In this document: positions 19,085-64,000 of the stretch, piece by piece
Numbering within the stretch: position 1 is the first letter of the stretch
Layout of the letters: the number at the start of each line of letters is the position of its first letter
NCBI RefSeq assembly: GCF_037392515.1
Contig: NC_090294.1
Coordinates: forward strand, 7,457,870-7,521,869
Direction of reading: 5' to 3'
Source of the DNA: Haliotis asinina
Lineage: Eukaryota
Length of the DNA stretch: 64,000 bases
The notes under the pieces: model-generated
The model's database searches: none
What the model was told of the DNA's origin: nothing
The model's input: only the letters and a program-made list of their open reading frames with translations
Made by a program: the position numbers and the translations under genes

Positions 19085-19925
19085 CTTCATTCCCGGTAAA
19101 GCTACATCTCCGTAATCACAAACCGTGACGCACCCCATCCTCTATGACCGGTAAAGCTACACCTCCGTAATCACATACCGTGACGCACCCCATCCTCTAT
19201 GACCGGTAAAGCTACATCTCCGTAATCACATACCGTGACGCACCCCATCCTCTATGACCGGTAAAGCTACATCTCCGTAATCACATACCGTGACGCACCC
19301 CATCCTCTATGACCGGTAAAGCTACATCTCCGTAGTCACATACCGTGACGCACCCCATCCTCTATGACCGGTAAAGCTACATCTCCGTAATCACATACCG
19401 TGACGCACCCCATCCTCTATGACCGGTAAAGCTACATCTCCGTAATCACATACCGTGACGCACCCCATCCTCTATGACCGGTAAAGCTACATCTCCGTAA
19501 TCACATACCGTGACGCACCCCATCCTCTATGACCGGTAAAGCTACATCTCCGTAATCACATACCGTGGCGCACCCCATCCTCTATGACCGGTAAAGCTAC
19601 ATCTCCGTAATCACATACCGTGGCGCACCCCATCCTCTATGACCGGTAAAGCTACATCTCCGTAATCACAAACCGTGGCGCACCCCATCCTCTATGACCG
19701 GTAAAGCTACACCTCCGTAATCACAAACCGTGACGCACCCCATCCTCTATGACCGGTAAAGCTACATCTCCGTAATCACAAACCGTGACGCACCCCATCC
19801 TCTATGACCGGTAAAGCTACATCTCCGTAATCACATACCGTGAGGCACCCCATCCTCTATGACCGGTAAAGCTACACCTCCGTAATCACAAACCGTGAGG
19901 CACCCCATCCTCTATGACCGGTAAA
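19085..19925. repeat. 55-bp minisatellite, ~15 units (unit ccggtaaagctacatctccgtaatcacataccgtgacgcaccccatcctctatga)
   Basis: Near-perfect head-to-tail copies with only a/t and a/g variants. The unit contains ccggtaaagctac, which resembles the MULE TIR core cccgggaaagctac. Confidence 0.9.
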
Positions 19926-20292
19926 GCTACCCCTACTTTCCTCTTTATAATTAAGAAAGTAGCTTTCCCGGCCCATAACATTTATGGCAAGCATGGGTTG
20001 CTGAAGGCCTATTCTACCCCGCATCTTCACGGGTCAGATATTCAAAGGCTAGGTATGAGTCTATTCATGTAATATCATACAAGGACGTTATTTCTTGTGC
20101 TGATGGGCAAACAAAGCAAGTACGCCTCTGAGAGATGTTTTAGGTTACGGACTATGAACACATTTGACAGTATTTTACGTGTTCACCAGAACATGTTTGA
20201 AAATCCCGTGTAGAGAATTCAATATACCGACCTCTGGAACAACCAAATAACTTTTTAAGTTCATAACCTCACTTACATTCATATAAACTGGT

Positions 20293-20570
20293 AGTGAGTG
20301 AGTGAGTATAGTTTCAAGCCGCACTCAGCAATATTCCAGCTATATGGCGGCGGTCTGTAAATAATCGAGTCTGGACCAGACAATACAGTGACCAACAACA
20401 TAAGCATCGATCTGCGCAGCTGGGAACCGATGACATATGTCAACCAAGTCAGCGAGCCTGACCACCCGATCCCATTAGTCGCCTCTTACGACAAGCATAG
20501 TCGCCTTTTATGGCAAGCATGGGTTGGTGAAGTCCTCTTCTACCCCGGGAACTTCATGGGTCTACAGATT
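20293..20570 (-). mobile_element. SINE family A, full-length-looking copy
   Basis: (gagt)n gtatagtttcaagccgcactcagcaatattccagctatatggcggcggtctgtaaataatcgagtctggaccagacaatacagtg … gcgagcctgaccacccgatcccattagtcgcctcttacgacaagcat … ggttggtgaag. The same consensus recurs at least 6 times in the window. Confidence 0.75.
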
Positions 20571-24110: not shown

Positions 24111-25176
24111 GTGTTTAATAGAATCCACATACGGATGATTACTTCCATATTTAAGATATGTATTATTTAAATTGTAAATACTTTTGCATATAGAATATGG
24201 GGAATATTTCATCAACAAAGTTGACATGCACACAGTTTACTGGGGCCGCCTTGCTAAAAAGCGTATTGAATAGGAGAATCACGTTTGCATTTTCTTATAC
24301 TGAAATAAGTAACAATTAGTGGTTTTGTTTACAGTCAAAGGGACAGTCACAGTTATGCTGACATTGCTTTTATTTCAGCGTTGATCATCAATCCTTCTGC
24401 ACCATGTGTATATCATTTATACAAACCATTTCCTTTTAAGGACAATGACCATAATGGTACGAAAAAAAAAGCAATTCTTCTAACAACCATGAATTGTATA
24501 TATTTGTTATGGAAGGTGGACATGGGAAAATGTTGACAGATTTGTATGACAAGGTTTCAGCTTGTGTTAGAATAGGTATTTCTAAAACTGAAATTTTCAC
24601 GACATCAAAGGGAGTACGGCAAGGATGTATGCTAAGCCCTGCGTTATTGACCGAGAAGACGAAATGAAGAAATGTCTTCTGCGAGGAGTGTAAGTCTGAG
24701 GTGTACTGAATGGTTTTATGTTGCTCTTATTTTATAATGAAGTACATTTAACTTAATGACACTACGATTGGTTTTCAAAGAACACTAGATGTGCTAATAC
24801 GCATTGTTATAAATAACCCAGAAGAAGTTATGTATAACTGCTTTTAGTGATGGTTGATGTCAACAAAAACATGTAGATGTAAACAGTATCCCACTATAAA
24901 TGTTTAGGAATTGCCTTCACATTTGGTCTAAACCCAGAGACTTCATTTCCTCTTATCTTACAAAAGGATTATCCAAATATGTCTCTGAATATAGGAGTCG
25001 GGGTAACACTTGTGCAAATAGGTTTTCTACAGTTTGTGTTTCTTTGAGAGTCATGTTTAGGAGTTGATGAATCAGATAAGGACAAACTGTATGGATGAAC
25101 AACATTTTATTCGGATTTTGGTGAAGGTGAGGTGAGGGTGAGGTGATGGTTAGGTGATGGTGAGTGAGTGAGTGAG

Positions 25177-25450
25177 TTAATGTTTAACGTCACATCGGCA
25201 GTATTGCAGCCATATCGTGACGAGAACATTCTTGAAAAAAGGAATTGATGCATGTGATAAAAGATTCTGTCGACGAAGGACTAGAATATCACAATAAGAA
25301 ATAAAACTGTCGTGAAAAGTTAAAACTAATATCACTATTCAGACAATACGATATAAAAAAAAGGCTATAGATCGCCAACAACTGAAGGTAGATCACCATA
25401 CTAGAGGCCATGGGGACCTCACTTCTGCTACCTGCATGGTCCGTGAGGTG
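25177..25450 (+). mobile_element. SINE-like short repeat family B
   Basis: Head gagtgagttaatgtttaacgtcacatcggcagtattgcagccatatcgtgacgagaac and body …ctgtcgacgaaggactagaatatcacaataagaaataaaact…gaaaagttaaaact…ccatactagaggccatggggacct. The same are found at 41693-41960 and 46563-46990 (the 60601-60660 copy shows the head only). Orientation is assigned arbitrarily. Confidence 0.6.
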
Positions 25451-27589
25451 ATGGACCGTGTTGTACAACGCTGTGTCTTGTGTGGACTTGTGTGGGCGTT
25501 CTAGTAAGCTGGTTGGGCATTTCTTGGTCTTTCTGCAGGGTGTAGACTCTGACTTGGGAGTGGAACCAGACATGTCAAGGATGATGCTGGCCCGTTTCCT
25601 GTCGGTTGTACTGGGGCAATGTTGATGTCTGTCCTCCTTGGCGTCTCTTTTTGTTTCTCATCATCGGTGATGTTAGGCGTTTGTCCTGCGGTTTCTGTGG
25701 AGAGGTTTAGTTTGACAGCGAACTGTTACAATTTTAACATTTTGTTTCATAGAAAACCTGCAATCCCGATCTCCATGTTACTAATGCTAAACGTCAAAAT
25801 ACAATCAATATGAAATAACCAAACACCGCATGTATTTGAATAATACCGCATCTGCATAAGACATGTCTGTTACATTCCGTGTATACACTCACTTTAAAAG
25901 TCACCCTGGCATTTTTCTCCTCACAGAGCGGGAATAAGAAATGCACACCGAACATGACGTTCATGGACTTTAAGTGACAGCATTGAGATGGGCTTTATAA
26001 TCTCTGTATAATATATTTGATCAGATAACTAATATTCCGTGTACACTATTGTCATAGTGTACGGTCCCGGCTGACCTGTTTAATCTCTTTCTGGGAAATT
26101 TGACATCTGGTGCGACCGCCTACTTTCAGTAGCCAATACTGATTATCATAGCTATTTTGCTCTTTACTCCAAATCAACTCGTTGTATTGGATAATAAAGA
26201 CGACGATCGAGGATGTAATTTATTCATGAAAAACTGTTATTTGATATTATTAGTTACCTTGACATAATATGAGTGCAACATATATGTTCATCCCTCGTAG
26301 GCCTTCCGCTAAACAGCATTTGTTGCTAATTAAAACAACATAATAGAATGCAGTGAAAAGCAAAGATATTCCTATTCTGTATCTCCTCTGAAACATATAC
26401 ATTTATGCAAATAGATTTGGATGCTTTATATCACTTGAACAAATGTTGAACTGATACGTGAACTGAATCGTCACATCCGAGATTGCATGTGGAACTACAG
26501 CCCCTAAAGTTGTATATTATATTGTTAACATTTACAAACTCGTGTACCCAAATCAAAAGATCAGTCGACGTACTTCGAAAAAATCATACTCCACTTAATC
26601 TATGGAGGACATTGACAGAAGTCACGAAAGAAACTAATATAGACGGGACGCACGAAGACGTCGAAGATATAGGTAATATTAACGGTTCTTTTTTGTTTGT
26701 TAATCCTGTGTATAGTATATTTCTGTCAGCATTGTAATATGGACATGACGGTGGCCTGTAAACAGCAAGTCTTAGCCAATGTATAAGCGTCTGTTATCCA
26801 GTGGAGCCACTAACGATATCGCTTTACGTTTGCACACAGGGAATAGCCTCTAGGGAACGATAGCTTTAGTTAAGATTCTCACCTGTTTCACAAACGCTCT
26901 GGTTTTAAGTTTTGGATGGGCCGTCATAGTGAGGGCTCTTCAGAAAACAAAAGATAATGGAATATGAAGAGATATAATAGCTTTTTGTTTTCAGTATTAT
27001 ATATTCTTGATAAGAGTTCGATACTCACCATCATGTTAGAGAGAGTTAGTTGCTAGCTAAAATATAAGAAACGAGTGGTTGTTTATCTAGTACCACAGAG
27101 AGCTAGTGAATTATTCCAGTATTCAAGAGAGTTGGTTAGTTGTTACTTAATAAAGAGGGGTTTTGCATATTATGTAGAGAGATTGTTAATTGTGTTAGTG
27201 TTGATTGCTTACTTTATCGTTGATGGAGATTAGTAATAATGGATCACAAGGGACAGTTATTGTGTAATAATATTTTCATATGTATGAAACAATATTGACT
27301 TCCTTTATCATATCAGTGAGCTGACTGTCAACTGTTTCATTATAAAAATACCGGACCTACAATAGTCCACGTTTTTAAGTAGCTACACAGCCAAACTGAT
27401 TCCAATATTAAAAGGTTTTTCACTGTTTATCTGTAAGAAACGAAACCCGGACACATACTATTATGTAAATGCAATCAGTCATGCCATTATTGCCTCCTGT
27501 TATATGCACAGTCCGGTATCGTGTTTAGACACACATGACACTTTCGAGTCATGTGCAAGTATTGTGGATACAGTGGGTGCAGTAAACAA

Positions 27590-27720: not shown

Positions 27721-27980
27721 ACATAGAACTTGGTTTTCCTTCAGTACCTTTCCAAGTTGAAATATGCAATACTACGAGAATGCTTATGTGGACTTACGTA
27801 TGAAAGAATTTATTGATTGTAAACTGTTTATGATCGTGTTGCTATTGAATGGAGAAACAACTGGGTCCGTAGTGTTTTTAAAACGGTAGTGCTATACGTG
27901 ACACTACTCCACTTGCTACCAATGTGTCAGGCAATACCATTTCACATGTTTCAGAGGTCAGCCTATGTTATCCGATCGTC

Positions 27981-28127
27981 ATGACTGGAAAGGAACGAGT
28001 CAAAAATTGCCAAGAGCTGGGTATTGACAGAGAGGCAGAGAAGCTGGCTGAGAAAGAGGATGAACCACTGTACTATACTCTGACTCAAAACCCGCCGTGT
28101 ATGATAACGTTGAGTGCTGCCTTGCAG
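27981..28127 (+). CDS. SLC23-family (SVCT / nucleobase-ascorbate transporter-like) first coding exon (MTGKERVKNCQELGIDREAEKLAEKEDEPLYYTLTQNPPCMITLSAALQ)
   Basis: The exon begins at acceptor 27953-54 (tttcag|ag) with ATG at 27981, and the donor is cag|gtatgt at 28128. EPLYYTLTQNPPCMITLSAALQ aligns to SVCT [21 protein letters not shown]. The phase-0 end matches the next exon at 41523. A paralogous copy of the exon lies at 63679. Confidence 0.7.
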
Positions 28128-28159
28128 GTATGTGGTCTTGTTGAAATCATCATCAGTCG

Positions 28160-29210: not shown

Positions 29211-29560
29211 GGGAAAAATTAATCTGTCATACACAGACAAGAGCATTCCTGAACCAAACAAAAGCATTCCTTAGGAGCACAAAAAAAATTCCTTAAGGAG
29301 CGTAGGAGCAGCCTTAGGGGTCAAAAGAAATTCCTATAGGAGCGTAGGAGCAACCGTAGGGGTCAAAAGAAATTCCTATAGGAGCGTAGGAGCAACCTTA
29401 GGGGTCAAAGGAAATTCCTATAGGAACGTAGGAGCAACCTTAGGGGTCAAAAGAAATTATTATATGTGCTCCCAGGTGCATACAGGTTCGCTATCTCACA
29501 TTCCATAGGTGTCACATTTAGACAATACACATTTCTTCTATACAATATCAAATTCTTATA
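29211..29560. repeat. Polinton left TIR with 4 copies of a ~42-bp subterminal repeat (ccttaggggtcaaaagaaattcctataggagcgtaggagcaa)
   Basis: Reverse-complement match to 39620-39830, and the tandem copies at 29267-29452 are visible. Confidence 0.8.
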
Positions 29561-50585: not shown

Positions 50586-51055
50586 GTTAATGTTCTGTCC
50601 ATAAGAGTTGGTAATTAGTAAACATCTAGTATAAGTCCGAAATATGTAGACATAAACACATGTACTTTGATATATATACGTTGTTTATATAGTTGCAGTT
50701 TATTAAGTAACCATCGGAAAATTGAATGGAAATTATGATATAGAGCTGAGGTGATTTCCCAGTTAGTAGATAAGTATTGAAAGATTATTCTTGGCAGAGT
50801 TAATTCACATTCAGATCTATGGGAATGTCTCTTATGCTGACTCACTTATGGTCAACTGTTGTATGTTGTTTGTGTAAAGTACGAACAATCCTGGTTCAAG
50901 TTACAGTAGCATATGTCCTCCAGGAGTGCTTGGTAAGTCTACTTTAATACCGCTTGCAATACGAAGTCTTTCCCAGATATTAATATAACTGTTGATGATA
51001 AGATGAAATGAATTGTCTAAGGCAGAGCATGACTTTTATCCTCCTTATTTTCCAG

Positions 51056-51329
51056 ACGGCTAGTCGATTCGTTATGCTGTGCAACGGTTTCATCCTTATA
51101 TTGATGTCAGTTTTCGGTAAATTTGGTGCTGCCATAGCAACTGTTCCGGACCCGACTCTTGCTGGCTCGATGGTCGTCCTCAGTGGAATGCTTGTGTCTA
51201 TTGGTTTGTCTACCCTCCGCCATGTCAACATGGACTCGTCCAGAAATATGACAATACTTGGGGTGTCATTATTCTGTGGAATATTCCTGCCTGAGTGGGT
51301 GGACAGACACAGTGACTTCATTAATACAG
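51056..51329 (+). CDS. SLC23-family exon (TASRFVMLCNGFILILMSVFGKFGAAIATVPDPTLAGSMVVLSGMLVSIGLSTLRHVNMDSSRNMTILGVSLFCGIFLPEWVDRHSDFINT-G)
   Basis: Acceptor ttttccag|acg, donor acag|gtatat. Aligns to SVCT [82 protein letters not shown]. Confidence 0.9.
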
Positions 51330-51746
51330 GTATATTTATATGTTCCCTGGTGATCAATAGCTCATGGATAGATGGACATAATACAGTAATGTCTATACAG
51401 CAATTCAAGTTTTTTCTATTTTTTCTAATATCAACACAGACACATTCAGATGAAAATATTGTGTTTTCTGGAAGAGGTCTGGTCAAGCAGCATTCAACAG
51501 TACGGTGTCTTCCTCTCATGTTTTGGCAAATATTTAACACCTTTTCTGAATTCGGGGGTATTGTGTAACATACTTCTGGGCAAATACTAACTGACACGTT
51601 TAGAGCAAAACGGAATATTCGTTAATATGCAGTATTATACCTAGCATAATGACAACGTAATTAGCCACCACTAATTACACGTATCCCATGTTACACGAAA
51701 CTGCACAAAGCGAGGAGTTTTGTCCAACTACTTTCCCTTTGGACAG

Positions 51747-53095: not shown

Positions 53096-54420
53096 CTTCG
53101 AAGCTCTATGTCATGACTTCTCATATGTGTGCTTTCACATACTGGTATTATCCTTGCGGTTGTCTATTCAGACTGGACGATGTCAGAACCTTCCTGCTGT
53201 ATGTGTTGTTCTCAAATTTTGACTGTTCAGTTGTTCAATAAACAGGAATTACATACCATACGTTTCAGTTTGTAAGCTGTTTGGTGTTTCTCTCGGTGGA
53301 GCTACATCGTAAAGTGGTTCAGGGAACAAAAGGTTCTTTTCATACTGGTATTGTTGTCATGTCAACCATCATTAACATTTGATATGTAGTTAATCTTCCC
53401 TACTGCCCAGCTGCAAATCTTCAACTTTGGAAGAACTACAGAGTCTCCTGTTATACAGCTATTTACCTACTGATGTTAGATGCACAGAAGCAGTCAAAAA
53501 CATTATCAAAACATTCGATGACTTAGGCCGATGACTGGACAATAATGTCCAGTATTTAATATGTGTATAGCAGTGGTTGCCCCTTTTAAACACAGGGCAT
53601 CTCGCTACGTAATACACACAATGAGAGAACGGGAATCTTTCACCCTAAGTCACGTTTTCACCTTCCTGGTGTCACACTAAATTTATACTTTGAGTGAGGT
53701 CTAAGGCAGCAGAAGTGAGGTGAAAGCGCTTAATAATAGGGTGTAGTCCCGTTCTGACATTGTCTATACTATTTACCGGGACCCCAACATTGAGAATATG
53801 ATTGGTATTAATGGCACTGAGCACTCAGCAATCAATGCCATTGAAGCATTTTACGTGCGTTACACTACGTTCTAAACACACAAAATTTTCCTTCGCAGAA
53901 ATATCATGAAATGTAGCTTTTTCCAACAAGACCGTCTCTTAGATCTGATAAATAACATTATGTTAACTTTGTTCTGTAACTTAATCATGTATTTAAATTA
54001 TTGCATAATTGTTTGGGATGTGTAGATGCTACCATAACGCGTTTCTTTCACCCGTGCGTGTGCACGTCCATGCACGTCTACGCACATTGTATGTGCAGTT
54101 TGCTTGTGCGGTCTTGTATTTAGCTTTATATTGTCCAGTTATCCTTGAGGTGGACACACGACCAGGGGCTGAGATAACGCTACAAGGTTTTGGTGCATTA
54201 GTACCTATCCAGACCACCTTTGAAGCTGTGTATTTGCTTCAATTACTTAAACTGTAAATTTGAAAACAAGCATACACCGTTTAAATTTCAGTAACATGCG
54301 CAGATATATATGCATGAACAATTTGAATAACCAAAAACTACTTTTAATCTCGAATGAACTACAAAATGTAAGCATACACTCCACGATTCAATTTTTTTAG
54401 CCCTTTTCCCCTACTCACAT

Positions 54421-54610
54421 TTGTCGAGTGAGTGAGTGAGTGAGTGAGTGAGTGGATTAAGTTTTACGCCGCTTTTAGCAATATTCCAGCAATATCACGG
54501 CGGGGGACACCAGAAAATGGGCTTCACACATTGTACCCATGTGGGGAATCGAACCCGGGTCTTCGGCGTGACGAGCGAACGCCTTAACCACTACGCTACC
54601 CCACCGCCCC
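54421..54610 (-). mobile_element. SINE family C copy with a (GAGT)n / (CACT)n terminal microsatellite
   Basis: Minus-strand reading: gggggcggtggggtagcgtagtggttaaggcgttcgctcgtcacgccgaagacccgggttcgattccccacatgggtacaatgtgtgaagcccattttctggtgtcccccgccgtgatattgctggaatattgctaaaagcggcgtaaaac(ttaatccactcactcactcactcactcactcactcg). Confidence 0.65.
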
Positions 54611-56699
54611 CACATTTGTCGAAATAACTGACAACGGGTTGAAGGAAAGTGATTGATCTCGTGACGTAATTACATATAAACGTATAGGCTTGCAAGCCCA
54701 TGTCGGTAGACATTCAATGAAGTCATAGGAATCGTGATGTCATTTGTGAAGATATCACAATGTGAACCCAATGTAACAAATAGAAGAGCATTCTGTAGAT
54801 AGGTAGGAAGGTTTTGTAGTAGTCCTACAGTAAATACCGTGTCCTTCAGAACTGTTAAACAACCCGGGGAAAGGTGATAAAACAGGTACAGAAAACAAGG
54901 ACTTCTTTTGTATGACCGTCGGTTTTATAGAATAAAGTAGAATAGAGTAGAGCAAAACACGGGGGGATCTAAAATTATTGAGTGAGGATACCATGGGATA
55001 CACGGATTTACAAAATAGGACAACTATACATCTCCTTGACGTTTGATCTATGTGCTCAAAAACCGGCATTTCACCTCCAGAAAAGCATTTCATCTTCTGG
55101 CATTAGTTCTTATATGTACAGCTACTCACATGAAAAAGATCTAAACGTTTGAAACGAATATATATGTTTGTTGTACATGTGCTTATATGACAATCATTAC
55201 AGTGTCTTTCACACAGTTCACAATATTTAGGAACGTTTTGCTCGAGAATTTATTCGCGCTGTAAGACTTCTCACTATAAAGGATAAACATACATCAAACA
55301 ATATCACCTATGTACAGCAAAGGTGGGTTTAGCAGCATCTAGACATATCCTCACCTCCTAACTTAGTTTCACATAGACTTGAGTAGCCCATGGTGCAGTT
55401 TCAGTTTCATTAAGTTAATAACTATTTTACGCCATGAGGATTTACATGGAAACTTTCCAGTTTCCAGATAGTCACTAACATATTTAAAAAGATAGCATGG
55501 TTTGTGGAAGCGTGACACATATACAATGTGGCGCTGTTGTTCATTTTGAAATGTGGCCAACTCGACACAGAGTAAATCTATTGCATAGTCTACAAAGAAA
55601 TGTAGTCTACATTTATCTATGTAGCCAACCACAATCAAGGTTCCCAGCACAGAAGCAGATGAGAAACGTATGCCAAAGTCCTGGGTACATGTTTGCGTGC
55701 TTTCGACCAATTCATAGTCTTTACCATGCCGAATAGGTAAACGTTCACATCCACAGAAATTTGTGGCGAGTATCATCCACCTCCATATCTTTTACACAGT
55801 TCTTTGCTGTTACGCCGAGACTCTTTAGGGAATTTTCAGATTCTCGTTCTTTATGACAATATGCGTACAGTCTAGATTTGGAGGATAATCAGAAGAAATC
55901 AAGATACCTCTTTATTTGACACTACCATTTCCTGCAACGTCTGATTCGTCAAATGTGTAAGAATAATCATCTTGGCCTGTCTTAGATTTATGGAATATAA
56001 TGCAAGTACTCTTGAACCGTTACACGCATGCCACCACTTACAATCACCACTTACACACAGTGTCAAGTGACGACTGGAGATCTTTGGAAGTAGACGTGTG
56101 TGTAGTGTCATCATCCAATAAAATACAGGGGCTATCAACACCGTATACGTGAATACCAGAATAACTAGATTTGGTACAGGAGCTACCTTTTATACTCATT
56201 TCATATAATTTTGACCATATGCGGTGGAACGCCCTTACGGTATCAATAAAAGCAGTATATATCCCTGAATCTCTGTTTAAGTAATTAGGTACGCGTTCAT
56301 TTAAAGTAAACACTTAAGCCGTTGCTCAATGTTCTTTCTAAAGCCAAACAGGAAATGTTGCTATGTACTATTGCACCCAGGGTTCTAGCGTAGCGAGAAT
56401 TACTTTCTCAAACGTTCTCCAAAAACAAGATGTTAAAATTATTCCTCTATTCTGTATATATGGTGTTTATGACCATGTTTTGCCTTTTTGCCTTTACATG
56501 CTGGAATAACTAATAATAAAATTGAAAAGTGCAGTTATTACATCTATGATGCTGTCAGTGGCATAGATTTTAGATGTTCGTTGTGTGCATAACCAGAGCC
56601 TGGTGATCTTTTTTATTGAGATTAGTAATGTGACCCTTCACTTCATCTATTTCAGCACAATCACACAAAGCATCGTCTCAGGATATATATGTATGGCAT

Positions 56700-57900
56700 A
56701 AACGGACACAAGAAATGTGTAAACGTGTGTCCAGTGGTCAACATTCAGTTAGCACTGACTATCTTAACGGCATGTACTCGTCCTGTGGTAAACATTCAGT
56801 TAGTACTGACTATCATAACGGCATGTACTCGTCCTGTGGTAAACATTCAGTTAGTACTGACTATCTTAACGGCATGTACTCGTCCTGTGGTAAACATTCA
56901 GTTAGTACTGACTATCTTAACGGCATGTACTCGTCCTATGGTACACATTCAGTTAGTACTGACTATCTTAACGGCACGTACTCGTCCTGTGGTCAACATT
57001 CAGTTAGTACTATCTTAACGCCACGTACTCGTCCTGTGGTAAACATTCAGTTAGTACTGACTATCTTAACGGCATGTACTCGCCCTGTGGTAAACATTCA
57101 GTTAGTACTATCTTAACGCCACGTACTCGTCCTGTGGTAAACATTCAGTTAGTACTGACTATCTTAACGGCATGTACTCGTCCAGTGGTCAACATTCAGT
57201 TAGCACTGACTATCTTAACGGCATGTACTCGTCCAGTGGTCAACATTCAGTTAGTACTGACTATCTTAACGGCATGTACTCGTCCAGTGGTCAACATTCA
57301 GTTAGTACTATCTTAACGCCACGTACTCGTCCTGTGGTAAACATTCAGTTAGTACTGACAATCCTAACGGCATGTACTCGTCCTGTGGTCAACATTCAGT
57401 TAGCACTGACTATCTTAACGGCATGTACTCGTCCAGTGGTCAACATTCAGTTAGCACTGACTATCTTAACGGCATGTACTCGTCCAGTGGTCAACATTCA
57501 GTTAGCACTATCTTAACGGCATGTACTCGTCCTGTGGTCAACATTCAGTTAGTACTGACAATCCTAACGGCATGTACTCGTCCAGTGGTCAACATTCAGT
57601 TAGCACTGACTATCTTAACGGCATGTACTCGTCCAGTGGTCACCATTCAGTTAGCACTATCTTAACGGCATGTACTCGCCCTGTGGTAAACATTCAGTTA
57701 GTACTATCTTAACGGCATGTACTCGTCCAGTGGTAAACATTCATTTAGCTCTGAGTATCTTAACGGCATGTACCCGTCCTGTGGTAAACATTCAGTTAGC
57801 ACTGACTATCGTAACGGCATGTACTCGTCCTGTGGTAAACATTCAGTTAGTACTGACTATCTTAACGGCATGTACTCGTCCTGTCGTAAACATTCAGTTT
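56700..57900. repeat. 51-bp satellite, ~24 units including 42-bp short variants (unit cattcagttagtactgactatcttaacggcatgtactcgtcctgtggtaaa)
   Basis: Near-identical head-to-tail copies. The overlapping + ORFs in the six-frame track (56689-57918) are periodic artefacts of the 51 = 3x17 unit. Confidence 0.9.
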
Positions 57901-60600
57901 TGTAGGGTTAGTTCTTAGAGATTGAGTGAGTGTAGTTTTAGGCCACACTCATTAATAACCCAGCTGTATGGCTAAGTTAGCACTGACTATCGTAAAGGTA
58001 AGTTGGGGCAGCAGGATGTCGCTATCCTTGATCAACCCGCCACATGCACTGAGACTCATCACACTGGTCGTAAGCGTGTTTTAATCGCTAATCTTTGTTG
58101 GCAATCAAAATGGAATACACAAGCCACAAACAATGTACATGATACACCGCTGATCATATCTGATAACCAGATGTTCCACGTCAAAGTCAATCTACCATGT
58201 AACATATACGTTTGGACTGCACGGATACTTGATTGATAAGAGAAACTAATTTCGAACATCATTTCACACAAGTTTATAGCCACACGATTTTATCATTTTT
58301 GAAAGATATTGATCTTTATGACAAGAGTTAACTTTAGCCAGTTTGTTATTTTTTAGCATCACTGATAATTTATATTGTCTTTGATATTGGTTGATTTTCA
58401 GTTAGTAATTAATAGTTACTGCTTCTCGGTGCGAATAGCTGGAAATTCGATTCTTCAAAGGCATTTCGATGTTGGTGCAGTAATGTCAGACAAATCTGCA
58501 TAACAAGTTCTGGATGTATTTCACAACGTTTTATTCCACAGCATTTTCTTGACGAAGGGGCAAGAATTAGCCCAGAAACGCTGTGAAAAATAAATCAAGA
58601 AGTTGTTATCAATAAGGTTTCTCTTGTATTAGCCAGAACGTTGGTGACACAGCGTAAAGCAATATTCGTTTATTCATTTATATAAAGATCTGAAACACAT
58701 ATGACAATTTCAATCTTAAGATGTAATGACATCATAAATGATATCGAAAAGTACCTTTAAAGACAACGACGCACACGGGGATGTCTTGTTAATCGCATGG
58801 AGTGACATGTGTAGGTTAATTCACCATCATCAAGCGAAGGGTGACTACAACCAGATGATGAAAAGTGTGTGAGGAGAAGCAGTAGAAAACACTGGCCACA
58901 GGTAATAGACAACCGCACAAGTCGTGAAGCCTATATACAGAAAGGTCAAAATGAAAATACGGTGATTTGGATGCTCAATGGTGAGTTCACTGGCAGAATG
59001 AATAGCGTGAGTAACTCTGCTGATGATACGTGTGATTCTCTTGATCTCTGTTTGCCATGAGGCAAATAACGTCTGTAGATAGCATCTTCTTATCTTTTGC
59101 AACGATCGGCATCGTTGGTGATTAAATAATTCAGCAAACAACATTATGGATGGTAATTTTTATTGCACAACTATATGCTTCGTGCTTTACTCACCAAACA
59201 ACATAGAACACACAAATAATTTATTGTATCAATCAATGTATCTCATCCCGTGCAAATCTGCTGTACTGGAAAAAAAGTAACTAGATGATCACCTTTATTT
59301 TCAGGGCTAATTCCCTTAGGCCATATTTGATCAAATATTTCAAAAGGATTTCAAGACATGAACCAAGCAAATGTTTCAAAAGCGGATAGTGAATATTTTT
59401 AGTCACCGTTGTTCTACCATGAACTTGCACAAGGGCAATGGAGGTCCTGTAATCAGATTTCTTCTTCTCTTCTCCAGTTTTTTTCTGATATATTTGAAAC
59501 TCTGGGATATGATTTAACGAAGAGGGATGCCTGGCCAGAGTGTCACCAGGGTTTATTCGCAATGGCATCTTCATCAGTTAATAAATTATCATCGCCTTTG
59601 AGATGGCGAAAAATAGATTTTGAACCTGTGAATTCTTCGGCTATAGGATATATTTTTATGACGACCAGATTCTATAAATAAGTTAAGGTTGTTGCAACGG
59701 AATCTGGTACATTCTTATACTAAATATGATAAGGTTGGATGTCACCATGTAAGGTACTTTTCAACATCATGAAGAAATTTAAACAGTTTGTAGTTGCAAC
59801 ATTTTGAGTTATCTTGTGGGGGTAATGCCAGTCCTGAATTGGATTATCTCTCAGTTGTTGCTGAAATTCCGATATGAAAAGATCAATGTCTCCCACTTCG
59901 GGATGCTTCCACTCTTGTCCAAATCCCAGTTTACAGAGCATACTATTAATCTCAGAAACATAAGTATAACGACCTGTATTAGAGATGAAGGTTCCAGATG
60001 GATATGTCTGCACCAGAATTTCATAGTTTTTGCCATATAAATTATCCGTACTTCGTTTTACATTCTCTTCGAAAAAAGCCATATTATCCAAGAGCCATAT
60101 TATTCGGTGTAGTTTTGCTCAGTCCAGGAACATATCGCAGAATTAAATGTTTCTATGATGTTCTGTGTTGTCCCCACCCCCCATTTCTGCTCTATAGAAC
60201 AGTATAGGAACCCCTGTACTGTTGTACAACACAAGAAGATCACAATAGATGCCTTACCAAAATTATACTCCTATTCATAGACGGTAATGTTGCATTTCTT
60301 TTTTTTTCTCATTTGCTTGAGATGCAGAGCAATTCAATGCTATGGTCCACGAAAGTTTAGACGTGAATATAATTCCCAGATACCTGTTATGGTTTACAAC
60401 CCTTATTCCTCCCCCGTTAAAATATCACTTTTCAACGTTTAGGGCTCCTTATGAAGGTTCTCCAGATGAACATTTAGAATAAAGTTAAGGTAGATGCCTG
60501 CCATCTATTCTATTTTTTCCTTTCGCTTTTTTTGACGAACTGACTAAGGCTGGCTGTTTGGTAACTGTTTCATTGTACCTAAGGCTGATTCGCAGTCTTA

Positions 60601-60660
60601 GTGAGTGAGTTAATATTTAACGTCACATGGGCAATATCTCAGCCACATCGTGACGAAAAC
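60601..60660 (+). mobile_element. SINE-like family B head immediately 5' of the 60-bp satellite
   Basis: gtgagtgagttaatatttaacgtcacatgggcaatatctcagccacatcgtgacgaaaac matches the heads at 25177 and 46563. Confidence 0.6.
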
Positions 60661-62470
60661 AATTCATAAAATAAAAAAAGAAATATTTGCAGTCTGAGAA
60701 GCTGAAGAAGACTGTGACTGTTGACGGAGGTTGAGTGATTGGGGCTTTCATGGAGAAGCTGAAGAAAACTATGACTGTTGACGGAGGTTGAGTGATTGGG
60801 GCTTTCATGGAGAAGCTGAAGAAGACTGTGACTGTTGACGGAGGTTGAGTGATTGGGGCTTTCATGGAGAAGCTGAAGAAGACTGTGACTGTTGACGGAG
60901 GTTGAGTGATTGGGGTTTTCATGGAGAAGCTGAAGAAGACTGTGACTGTTGACGGAGGTTGAGTGATTGGGGCTTTCATGGAGAAGTTGAAGAAGACTGT
61001 GACTGTTGACGGAGGTTGAGTGATTGGGGCTTTCATGGAGAAGCTGAAGAAGACTGTGACTGTTGACGGAGGTTGAGTGATTGGGGCTTTCATGGAGAAG
61101 TTGAAGAAGACTGTGACTGTTGACGGAGGTTGAGTGATTGGGGCTTTCATGGAGAAGCTGAAGAAGACTGTGACTGTTGACGGAGGTTGAGTGATTGGGG
61201 CTTTCATGGAGAAGCTGAAGAAGACTGTGACTGTTGACGGAGGTTGAGTGATTGGGGCTTTCATGGAGAAGCTGAAGAAGACTGTGACTGTTGACGGAGG
61301 TTGAGTGATTGGGGTTTTCATGGAGAAGCTGAAGAAGACTGTGACTGTTGACGGAGGTTGAGTGATTGGGGTTTTCATGGAGAAGCTGAAGAAGACTGTG
61401 ACTGTTGACGGAGGTTGAGTGATTGGGGCTTTCATGGAGAAGCTGAAGAAGACTGTGACTGTTGACGGAGGTTGAGTGATTGGGGTTTTCATGGAGAAGT
61501 TGAAGAAGACTGTGACTGTTGACGGAGGTTGAGTGATTGGGGTTTTCATGGAGAAGCTGAAGAAGAGTCTGACTGTGACTGTTGACGGAGATTGAGTGAT
61601 TGGGGCTTTCATGGAGAAGCTGAAGAAGACTGTGACTGTTGACGGAGGTTGAGTGATTGGGGCTTTCATGGAGAAGCTGAAGAAGACTGTGACTGTTGAC
61701 GGAGGTTGAGTGATTGGGGCTTTCATGGAGAAGTTGAAGAAGACTGTGACTGTTGACGGAGGTTGAGTGATTGGGGCTTTCATGGAGAAGCTGAAGAAGA
61801 CTGTGACTGTTGACGGAGGTTGAGTGATTGGGGCTTTCATGGAGAAGTTGAAGAAGACTGTGACTGTTGACGGAGGTTGAGTGATTGGGGCTTTCATGGA
61901 GAAGCTGAAGAAGACTGTGACTGTTGACGGAGGTTGAGTGATTGGGGCTTTCATGGAGAAGCTGAAGAAGACTGTGACTGTTGACGGAGGTTGAGTGATT
62001 GGGGCTTTCATGGAGAAGCTGAAGAAGACTGTGACTGTTGACGGAGGTTGAGTGATTGGGGTTTTCATGGAGAAGCTGAAGAAGACTGTGACTGTTGACG
62101 GAGGTTGAGTGATTGGGGTTTTCATGGAGAAGCTGAAGAAGACTGTGACTGTTGACGGAGGTTGAGTGATTGGGGCTTTCATGGAGAAGCTGAAGAAGAC
62201 TGTGACTGTTGACGGAGGTTGAGTGATTGGGGTTTTCATGGAGAAGCTGAAGAAGACTGTGACTGTTGACGGAGGTTGAGTGATTGGGGTTTTCATGGAG
62301 AAGCTGAAGAAGACTGTGACTGTTGACGGAGGTTGAGTGATTGGGGTTTTCATGGAGAAGCTGAAGAAGACTGTGACTGTTGACGGAGGTTGAGTGATTG
62401 GGGCTTTCATGGAGAAGCTGAAGAAGACTGTGACTGTTGACGGAGGTTGAGTGATTGGGGCTTTCATGGA
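60660..62470. repeat. 60-bp satellite, ~30 units (unit gagaagctgaagaagactgtgactgttgacggaggttgagtgattggggctttcatg)
   Basis: A highly homogeneous array with c/t and g/t variants. It generates a 614-aa minus-strand periodic ORF ((MKAPITQPPSTVTVFFSFS)n), which is most likely an artefact of the 60 = 3x20 periodicity. Confidence 0.9.
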
Positions 62471-63678
62471 GAAGCTGAAACGTGTTCCTCCGACATGATC
62501 CTAGTCAAATCAGTCTGACATGCCATACAGGACGTTGTCACGGTTATATATACGAAAAATATAGGGTATTCAGTGGAGTTGAGATCTGTTTTTGGAACAC
62601 TTATTCAGCATCAAAGTATGAAATGTTGTTTTTTCACACTTGATCTTCATGATTATAAAAATCTCCCTTAATACAGGACAGGACCTAGATGAAGATGGAT
62701 TTGGACCATCGCAGTTTGCAAATTTATGATCTTTTTCACAGTCCACATACTTAAGGCAATATTGTGAGCCGTGACCGAACTTCTGATATTTGTAACATCC
62801 AAATGGAAATAGTCGGCTTTAAGTGATTGTGAACCTTTTTTATTCGGGAGATGTTTCGATACAGATCCTTGAACGTAGGGAAAGCTGTTTATTTTGTGTA
62901 ACATTACATACAGTTGATTATGTACTTGATAATTATCACTCTTGGTAATGAGGTCTTTAATAGTCATTTAAAAGATATACACATAAGGAGGAGAGTTTTC
63001 TTATGGATATCAACTTCTTTATTGTGAGGAACACTTAATAAGAAGTGTTCGTTATAATAAAGAAGTCGACATCCATAAAAACCAATCTTCCTTATAATGC
63101 TTGGTTTTAACTCATGGTCTGCTACAAGGTTATGAAGAAGGTACAAGTCCACATCCGATGATTTCGACCTTAAACACATTTTCCCCTATTATAAAGGCAA
63201 CCTGGATACACACTCTCCTGTAAATGCAGACAGTCATGCCACAGTCATGTTAATGTTAAAGTGACAGTACGATCGTGAATTTCGTCATAAGCAAACTGCC
63301 TATACCGGTACTCTGTTAAAACCGGCAGTTTTATTTGGTCCCGAGTGATGCCGGTATTGACAGAGCACACTGCATTACCATCTGTTACATGCAACAGGGC
63401 TTTCAAAAATAACGCTTGCAACTGTCACATATCTATGTTTTTTCAGTCATGTAACAGTAATGTGAAGGTGTCAGTGCATCGGATGCAGTAAACAGATATC
63501 TTTGCCATAAAGTCACTTTAATAACGGGCTTAATCATGATAGTGCATTGGTTAAAGATTAACATTATGTGTGGTTGTATTCCACCTGTTGCCAATGTATC
63601 AGACAATATAACTTATGATTCACAAAAGGCACAAGAAATGTTCACGCAGTTTCAGACGTCTGCTGTTAGACTACCGTT

Positions 63679-63825
63679 ATGGCTGGCAAGGAACGAGTCA
63701 AAATTGACCAGGAGCTCGGTATTGACAGAAAGGCAGAGAATGTGACTGAGAAGGGAGATGAACCACTGCACTATACCCTGACTCAAAACCCCCCGTGTGT
63801 CATAATGTTGAGTGCTGGCTTACAG
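63679..63825 (+). CDS. First coding exon of a second, tandemly duplicated SLC23-family gene (MAGKERVKIDQELGIDRKAENVTEKGDEPLHYTLTQNPPCVIMLSAGLQ); the rest of that gene lies beyond the window
   Basis: It shares ~75% amino-acid identity with the exon at 27981-28127. A conserved tttcag acceptor lies ~25 nt upstream of the ATG (exon start 63656), and the donor cag|gtattt is at 63826. Confidence 0.65.
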
Positions 63826-64000
63826 GTATTTGTTCTGGTTGAAATCATACTCAGCTCTAAAAATGCATGAAACTTAAAATTCGTTTGGGCCGAATGCCAG
63901 AAAAGTAAATTATAACTTTCCACTGTTTTTGTGGAACACGTAGCACATCGTAGCATACGTGTATTGTTAATGTATGGCTAGATGTGAAGGGATGGTGTAA

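Follow-up and report, generated by a model that had tools for sequence, protein, structure and literature searches.

The window analyzed here, a stretch of 64,000 nucleotides from Haliotis asinina (assembly GCF_037392515.1, contig NC_090294.1, positions 7,457,870 to 7,521,869 of the forward strand), contains a tandem array with a 57-bp unit at 60696..62479. The array, to which no strand is assigned, is bordered on its left by a fragment of a short interspersed element (SINE), and its minus strand carries a periodic open reading frame (ORF) of 614 amino acids. We regard it as probable that this array is an ordinary, young, locus-specific minisatellite, that the SINE fragment is the truncated tail of an unrelated element inserted at its edge, and that the reading frame is accidental.

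The array comprises 31 full monomers and an 11-nt partial monomer, with the consensus GAGAAGCTGAAGAAGACTGTGACTGTTGACGGAGGTTGAGTGATTGGGGCTTTCATG. Tandem Repeats Finder reports a period of 57, 31.2 copies, 97% matches, no indels, and a score of 3388. An earlier note on this sequence had described a 60-bp unit and an array running from 60601; the 19-aa peptide given in that same note itself implies 57 bp, and the array proper begins at 60696. When the monomers are cut in register, 30 of the 31 are exactly 57 bp long. The remaining one, monomer 16 (61551..61613, 63 bp, no strand assigned), carries one substitution and a 6-bp insertion (GAAGA-GTCTGA-CTGTGACTG), which is the sole indel in the array and keeps the frame. 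Recurrent substitutions are limited to two, each C>T on the plus strand, at position 7 (five monomers) and at position 50 (ten monomers), and three further substitution types are each seen once in the array; mean pairwise divergence among monomers is 1.54%. On the plus strand the unit is G-rich (G22 T15 A14 C6; GC skew +0.39), and it contains small repeats of its own (GACTGT GACTGT; GAAG..GAAGAAG). The borders with the non-repetitive flanks are abrupt. Neither the left nor the right flank matches the unit by BLAST, as a degenerate monomer might, and BLAST finds no monomer-like sequence elsewhere in the window (best E=0.82). Exact scans with a 35-mer and a 22-mer core of the unit, over two metagenome contig sets and a set of viral contigs, returned 0 matches. 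Terminal inverted repeats or longer direct repeats, the sign of a DNA transposon or a miniature inverted-repeat transposable element (MITE) as carrier, do not rise above shuffled sequence around the array.

Coded by monomer variant, the array becomes the string ABACADADAACCACEFAADADAACCACCCAA. Shifting this string by 13 monomers brings 67% of the states into agreement (permutation p=0.0006); the other offsets tested give 20-38% matches, except offset 17, with 50% (p=0.09). The state pattern ADADAACCAC is found twice, first in monomers 5-14 (60924..61493) and again in monomers 18-27 (61671..62240), neither copy with a strand assigned, and the variant monomer 16 is located between the two blocks. 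This repeated block of about ten monomers is the footprint of unequal exchange within the array. Unequal exchange is the ordinary route by which arrays of this kind grow and remain uniform. The monomers diverge by 1.5%, as compared with 82% identity for the nearby gene duplication described below and 73-90% identity among copies of the SINE family called SINE-B. Because the array is so much more uniform than either, its homogenization appears to be recent or ongoing.

Classical minisatellites and arrays of variable number of tandem repeats (VNTR) have units of 10-100 bp and arrays of 0.5-30 kb, and copy-number polymorphism is their defining population property. As regards the properties that a single sequence can exhibit, the present array has a head-to-tail unit within the 10-100-bp range, kept in register, along with signs of concerted evolution and unequal exchange. 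It is further like the classical examples in its 57-bp unit and 1.8-kb length, its high identity between monomers, its G-rich strand asymmetry, its internal block duplication, its abrupt junctions with unique DNA, and its intergenic site. It differs from them in being known here from one haplotype, and in having a unit without a match in the collections searched.

The sequence to the left of the array is the end of a retroposon. A 5'-truncated retrocopy of a SINE/LINE-type 3' end (LINE, long interspersed element) occupies 60599..60688 on the minus strand. It consists of a stem-loop module (about 60597-60660) and then the terminal repeat (ACTC)2.5 (60601-60610), and an A/T-rich stretch precedes it on the minus strand, so that the order along that strand is array, A/T-rich spacer of 20-35 nt, tail, and (ACTC)2.5. 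The elements that reveal its identity are SINE-B-like, about 270 bp in length, and present in the window as three copies, c1 (25161-25445), c2 (46569-46790), and c3 (41689-41955). Segment 60600-60675 shares 85.5% identity with 25167-25240 and 89.8% with 46576-46634. With every filter switched off, a profile hidden Markov model (HMM) built from c1-c3 matches no more than 60600-60669 (E=1.4e-17), and nhmmer with a model of the tail finds the array-side fragment on the minus strand with E=2.7e-16. The tail RNA of this copy is predicted to form a stem-loop of -17 kcal/mol (z=-2.74). Neither the SINE-B profile nor BLAST detects any SINE body or head in the array-side fragment. Homology to SINE-B stands at 85-90% across the tail and declines to background within a few bases at 60660-60675, and a drop this sharp indicates a truncated copy rather than a decayed full-length element. 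The earlier note had the array start directly after a SINE-B head. A SINE-B-like fragment does lie 20-35 nt from the first monomer, but it is the reverse complement of a 3' tail.

The orientation of the module is set by a complete tRNA-type SINE elsewhere in the window, at 54426-54610 on the minus strand (54414-54624 with flanks). It has a perfect A box, TAGCGTAGTGG, and a perfect B box, GGTTCGATTCC, at its right end, a tail of about 55 nt, and (ACTC)7, and a target-site duplication of 12 bp, cacatttgtcga, lies on either side of it. At its left end, (GAGT)n leads into the module of about 55 nt that is seen also in the array-side fragment. Since the RNA polymerase III boxes lie at the opposite end of this element, the shared module must be a 3' tail that ends in (ACTC)n. 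The Rfam tRNA match to the minus strand of the element is weak and falls under the gathering score (18 bits, E=0.27); at gathering thresholds Rfam, like ARAGORN, gives no match over the whole window. Rfam applied at an E-value threshold to SINE-B copy c3 likewise gives no match, and the SINE-B head is not demonstrably tRNA-like.

A profile of the tail module finds 10 copies in the 64 kb at E<1e-10, and 14 at E<0.02, distributed over at least three SINE families. The stem varies between families in a compensatory manner (CGTCAC/GTGACG versus CGCCG/CGGCG); RNAalifold, applied to nine tails, recovers a 4-bp inner stem only, the families being offset by a 1-nt shift. SINE and LINE 3' tails of the stringent type, as in UnaL2 and UnaSINE1, combine a stem-loop with short terminal tandem repeats. 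The array-side fragment resembles the tails of such LINE-dependent SINEs in having a stem-loop and then (ACTC)n, and in that its module is common to at least three SINE families, in about 13 copies; it differs in being 5'-truncated to about 90 nt, and the tail is known here without a partner LINE. One SINE-B copy ends instead in (CACCT)n, a terminal repeat that has been reported for Haliotis SINEs in the same study from which we take the stem-loop and terminal-repeat terminology for mollusc SINE tails (PMC4758252). The SINE types of the window thereby hint at a mollusc, possibly a vetigastropod.

The heptamer GCAGTCT flanks the tail on both sides as a candidate target-site duplication, at 60592..60598 and at 60689..60695, the latter copy directly before the first monomer. 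The two junction regions have no longer substring in common, and the extended contexts of the two copies are TCGCAGTCTTA and TTGCAGTCTGA. A repeat of this length was reached in 114 of 5000 shuffles, or in 53 of 5000 if limited to the last 12 nt (p ~0.01-0.02). These features suggest that the tail came to the array edge separately, as a 5'-truncated retrocopy with a 7-bp candidate target-site duplication. If the tail did insert independently, an allele without it would read as uninterrupted GATTCGCAGTCTGAGAAGCTG.

A precedent for the arrival of such tails at arrays is found within the window. An array with a 51-bp unit at 56729-57899 (about 23 copies, 90% identity, higher-order periods of 149 and 200 bp), which extends to 57998 when its interrupted monomer is included, has a 5'-truncated minus-strand SINE tail at 57917-57974 inside its last monomer, which then resumes at 57975-57998. 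In this case the array clearly existed before the tail inserted.

A slightly more general form of the junction motif, CAGTCT(G/T)A, recurs at 60593-60600, at 60690-60697, and at 62510-62517, and AGTCTGA is present also at 61566-61572, where it forms the insertion of monomer 16. The recurrence could reflect a preferred endonuclease target that was used twice, or it could be coincidence. The copy at 62510..62517, CAGTCTGA, begins 30 nt past the right end of the array and is not significant when taken alone. In a direct-repeat test over wider flanks, 216 of 500 shuffles scored at least as well, and short repeats such as these are not decisive.

The periodic ORF of 614 aa described in the earlier note is present, on the minus strand at 60623..62467, in the frame whose product contains MKAPITQ and repeats as (MKAPITQPPSTVTVFFSFS)n. 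It exceeds the next-longest ORF of the window threefold. Its stop-free stretch covers 625 codons, 60626 to 62500; it opens right behind a TAG, with the first ATG following 33 nt later, and the frame closes within the SINE tail. A second minus-strand frame, (HESPNHSTSVNSHSLLQLL)n, is free of stops over 621 codons (60642..62504), although its unit has no start codon. Both open stretches begin and end no more than 75 nt from the array edges. The unit has just 6 C among its 57 plus-strand residues, which makes the minus strand G-poor and leaves two of its three frames without a stop; because the unit length is in addition a multiple of three, the 614-aa frame stays open from one monomer to the next. 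Such openness is the expected state for sequence of this kind, since at least one of six frames is open in 97% of composition-matched shuffled units and in 87% of random 57-mers of window composition. Four of the five substitution types in the 614-aa frame are non-synonymous and one is synonymous, and in the second open frame the ratio is 3:2; the counts are small, and both ratios are compatible with neutrality.

Protein evidence was sought as well. The 614-aa ORF has no match in a Pfam search and none in a word-indexed protein search. An exhaustive phmmer search over 1.84 billion representative proteins returned 113 matches to it, the best with E=7e-28. The best of these are tandem-repeat proteins with unlike units (HPIKQTIKDHMAIKAPSTG, AMAHPITQIVDFTITHVSK, and SGPGVHPVSTVGVFWSG) and an LRR-like protein. 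Each top match that we looked up is a singleton cluster, and just one has a name, as a stick-insect "hypothetical protein". In our reading, periodicity inflates the scores, since a weak match per unit is counted once for each unit, and they point to no coherent family of proteins. The two open frames, the Pfam result, and the mostly non-synonymous substitutions support the conclusion, in agreement with the earlier note, that the ORF is an accidental by-product of a repeat length divisible by three, and no gene, which could nevertheless be miscalled as mucin-like. The public protein sets hold singleton "proteins" made up of perfect tandem repeats of 17-19 aa (P0001, P0004, P0008, P0012); these look like translated minisatellites and are possibly annotation artefacts.

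The history that best fits these observations would begin with 57 bp of anonymous sequence that became duplicated and then expanded. Replication slippage, together with unequal exchange between sister chromatids or homologues, would have kept the array homogeneous, the block repeated at an offset of 13 monomers being the visible trace. A 5'-truncated SINE/LINE tail would have integrated on the minus strand at the left edge of the array by target-primed reverse transcription, a step that the candidate duplication of GCAGTCT points to. The unit length of 3n and the G-poor minus strand keep two of three minus-strand frames open across the whole array.

Several observations weigh against this account. 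The candidate target-site duplication GCAGTCT is only 7 bp long, and the occurrence of CAGTCTGA beyond the array would also permit the insert to have been tail, array, and 30 nt together, or array plus 31 nt. The right flank of the array is weakly and collinearly similar to the body of c3, at a level reached by 9 of 500 shuffles, though the profile HMM did not corroborate this. The assignment to a locus-specific, VNTR-type class comes from one locus in one genome and one haplotype. The word-indexed protein search that was empty for the ORF was empty also for a SLC23-like first exon and for a genuine Xan_ur_permease exon from the same window; the lineage is therefore probably poorly represented, and negative results from protein databases are weak evidence. 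Finally, all three large arrays of the window, with units of 55, 51, and 57 bp, are flanked at an edge by a SINE fragment no more than about 50 nt away, and this adjacency may not be pure coincidence.

The third of these arrays, at 19093-19930, has a 55-bp unit in 15 copies with 98% identity. A SINE fragment at 19981-20035 sits 50 nt from its right edge and is 87.5% identical to the right end of a SINE at 20289-20562; it consists of the head only, which is the reverse of the usual 5' truncation. SINE fragments make up 4.5% of the window. When the tails alone are placed at random, at least two arrays have one that close in 1-2% of simulations (P=0.01-0.02), a figure that is post hoc and drawn from a single window. 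The contact may reflect insertion preference or break repair at arrays. We think it unlikely, if worth stating, that minisatellite arrays in the H. asinina genome are not independent of SINEs, whether because arrays or breaks attract truncated retrocopies or because SINE/LINE 3' ends nucleate or carry VNTRs.

A specific form of the second possibility is that tail and array together are one composite non-LTR retroelement (LTR, long terminal repeat), for example a 5'-truncated LINE or an SVA-like SINE with a VNTR in its 3' region, lying on the minus strand between target-site duplications CAGTCT(T/G)A at 60593-60600 and 62510-62517. The array is indeed 5' of the tail on the same strand, 20-35 nt away, and a 7/8 direct repeat (CAGTCTtA versus CAGTCTGA) brackets tail, array, and 30 nt. 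In placing a VNTR beside a retroposon 3' module, on the same strand, the arrangement is like that of SVA-type composites (SINE-R/VNTR/Alu-like). Arrays borne by transposable elements are known in molluscs, among them satellite DNA associated with Helitrons or Helentrons, and satellite DNA junctions there often contain fragments of transposable elements (PMC5139131). The contact of all three large arrays with SINE fragments would also be in keeping with an element of this kind. Against this, the repeat on which the bracketing depends is both short and inexact, and it lacks significance over search windows of realistic size, while a better, exact 7-bp repeat brackets the tail alone. The unit and both of its flanks have no second copy in the window, and no promoter, SINE head, or other repeat is found to the right of the array. 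In contrast to SVA-type composites and other arrays carried by transposable elements, the 64 kb show no dispersed copies, no conserved flanking or 5' modules, no terminal inverted repeats, and no Helitron-like ends. Moreover, the geometry differs at the other arrays: at the 51-bp array the 3' end of the tail faces the array and interrupts a monomer, and the 55-bp array has a head fragment beside it. A composite retroelement is a decidedly unlikely explanation of the locus.

The earlier note had instead proposed that part of the interior of an inserted SINE-B was amplified in tandem to give the array, pointing to a resemblance between the unit and the SINE-B internal segment ctgtcgacgaaggac; the tail would then be the remnant of the parent element. 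Such a resemblance is present, as an 11/13 match of CTGTTGACGGAGG in the unit to CTGTCGACGAAGG in SINE-B; no better match between the two was seen, and it spans 23% of the unit. Of 500 shuffled units, 147-166 (about 30%) do as well or better, which is the level of chance. The match lies at roughly the expected distance from the tail, and the tail itself is collinear and directly beside the array; with a period of 57, though, every SINE position falls within 28 nt of a "collinear" one, so that position is little informative. When the spacer and first monomer (92 nt) were compared with the body sequence that follows the tail, 230 of 1000 dinucleotide shuffles did as well against c1 and 434 of 1000 against c2, whereas the positive control, c1 against c2, was reached by 0 of 1000. 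The profile HMM at maximum sensitivity ends after the tail, and it does not extend homology even on a reconstruction in which the array and the 31 nt between the CAGTCTGA copies were deleted in silico. That 8-bp sequence on both sides of array plus 31 nt, and the weak resemblance of the right flank to the body of c3, could be taken as traces of an interrupted element; the right flank has no BLAST match to SINE-B or to any other part of the window, and no HMM match. No array unit in the window resembles SINE sequence by BLAST, the 57-bp unit giving nothing at E<0.8 against the masked window. Also against the proposal, the tail retains 85-90% identity to SINE-B, with background directly after it.

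Tandem repeats derived from SINEs are well documented. The PcH-sat satellite of the limpet Patella caerulea comes from Nin-SINE (PMC11121367), and minisatellites derived from Alu and B1 have been reviewed (PMC6947457). The present locus is like them in that a tandem array adjoins SINE-type sequence in a gastropod-like genome. It differs in the extent of homology, which is 118 bp of a 179-bp unit in PcH-sat (PMC11121367) and 11/13 nt, at chance level, here. Aligned with the SINE-B copies, the unit shows no significant similarity to them. Seeding of the 57-bp array by a SINE is, as far as the sequence can speak to it, not supported by shuffles, profile HMM, or right-flank BLAST, and we consider it very improbable.

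Many lineage-specific repetitive proteins are found in molluscs, and the length of the ORF, its combined Pro, Thr, and Ser content of 47%, the in-frame nature of the one indel (6 bp), and a polypyrimidine-CAG motif in every minus-strand monomer might recall a genuine exon of a mucin-like or shell-matrix-like protein; this is hardly credible given an equally open second frame, a frame that opens after a TAG just upstream of its first ATG and ends in a SINE tail, 4:1 non-synonymous to synonymous substitution types, the lack of a coherent homologue family, the absence of a signal peptide and of any recognizable flanking exon, neighbouring minus-strand ORFs without a Pfam match, a site between two plus-strand genes 1.2 kb upstream of one of them, and an in-frame indel that is an ascertainment effect, in that the ORF would otherwise have gone unnoticed.

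Our preferred reading, that of an ordinary minisatellite with a later SINE tail, places these elements in the following setting. The window is eukaryotic in character, with 34-47% GC and eight ORFs of at least 130 aa; one of these, of 133 aa (56715-57116), is yielded by the 51-bp array, whose unit is likewise a multiple of three. Upstream of the 57-bp array, 51008-51568 on the plus strand represents the last exon of a SLC23-like gene, with a match to the C-terminal part of Pfam Xan_ur_permease (2.8e-18). Downstream, 63679..63825 on the plus strand is a putative first coding exon of another SLC23-like gene (nucleobase/ascorbate permease family), identified by its paralogy to 27981-28127, also on the plus strand: the translations share 75.5% identity over 49 aa (E=4e-22), and a PDB sequence search with the exon peptide gave no match. 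To judge from these exon assignments, the array is intergenic, between two tandem plus-strand SLC23-like genes, and ends 1.2 kb upstream of the ATG of the second. Nucleotide paralogy (63649-63854 versus 27948-28156) amounts to 82% and is limited to the exon, its immediate surroundings, and one upstream block. That block, at 63193-63241 and 27438-27486, is conserved about 490-540 bp upstream of both SLC23-like first exons and may be a shared promoter element. We considered whether SINE-B copy c1, 2.5 kb upstream of the first of these genes, and the array-side tail, 3 kb upstream of the second, might be paralogues from the gene duplication, and rejected this: paralogy stops at 63193/27438, and the left flanks are unlike.

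Two further repeats deserve mention. A near-palindrome at 62998-63081, between the array and the downstream gene, has 39-nt arms with 85% complementarity and a 6-nt loop, and may be a small MITE-like hairpin. An array of 4.3 copies of a 42-bp unit lies at 29280-29458, about 1.2 kb downstream of the first coding exon at 27981-28127. The same unit occurs again 10 kb away, on the opposite strand, at 39724-39788 (1.5 units, 88% identity), and from this second locus it follows that the 42-bp unit belongs to a dispersed repeat.

The main use of these findings is as a warning to annotators. Where the unit length of a tandem array is divisible by three, the array can yield a 600-codon "gene" that ab initio predictors could call. 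The orientation of a SINE module common in this genome is set right, as a 3' tail and not a head. Lying 1.2 kb upstream of a transporter gene, the array could find use as a polymorphic marker. That arrays repeatedly touch SINE fragments offers a modest lead; if SINE/LINE 3' ends do nucleate or carry VNTRs, the 57-bp array and its tail would be the mollusc counterpart of SVA-type composites.

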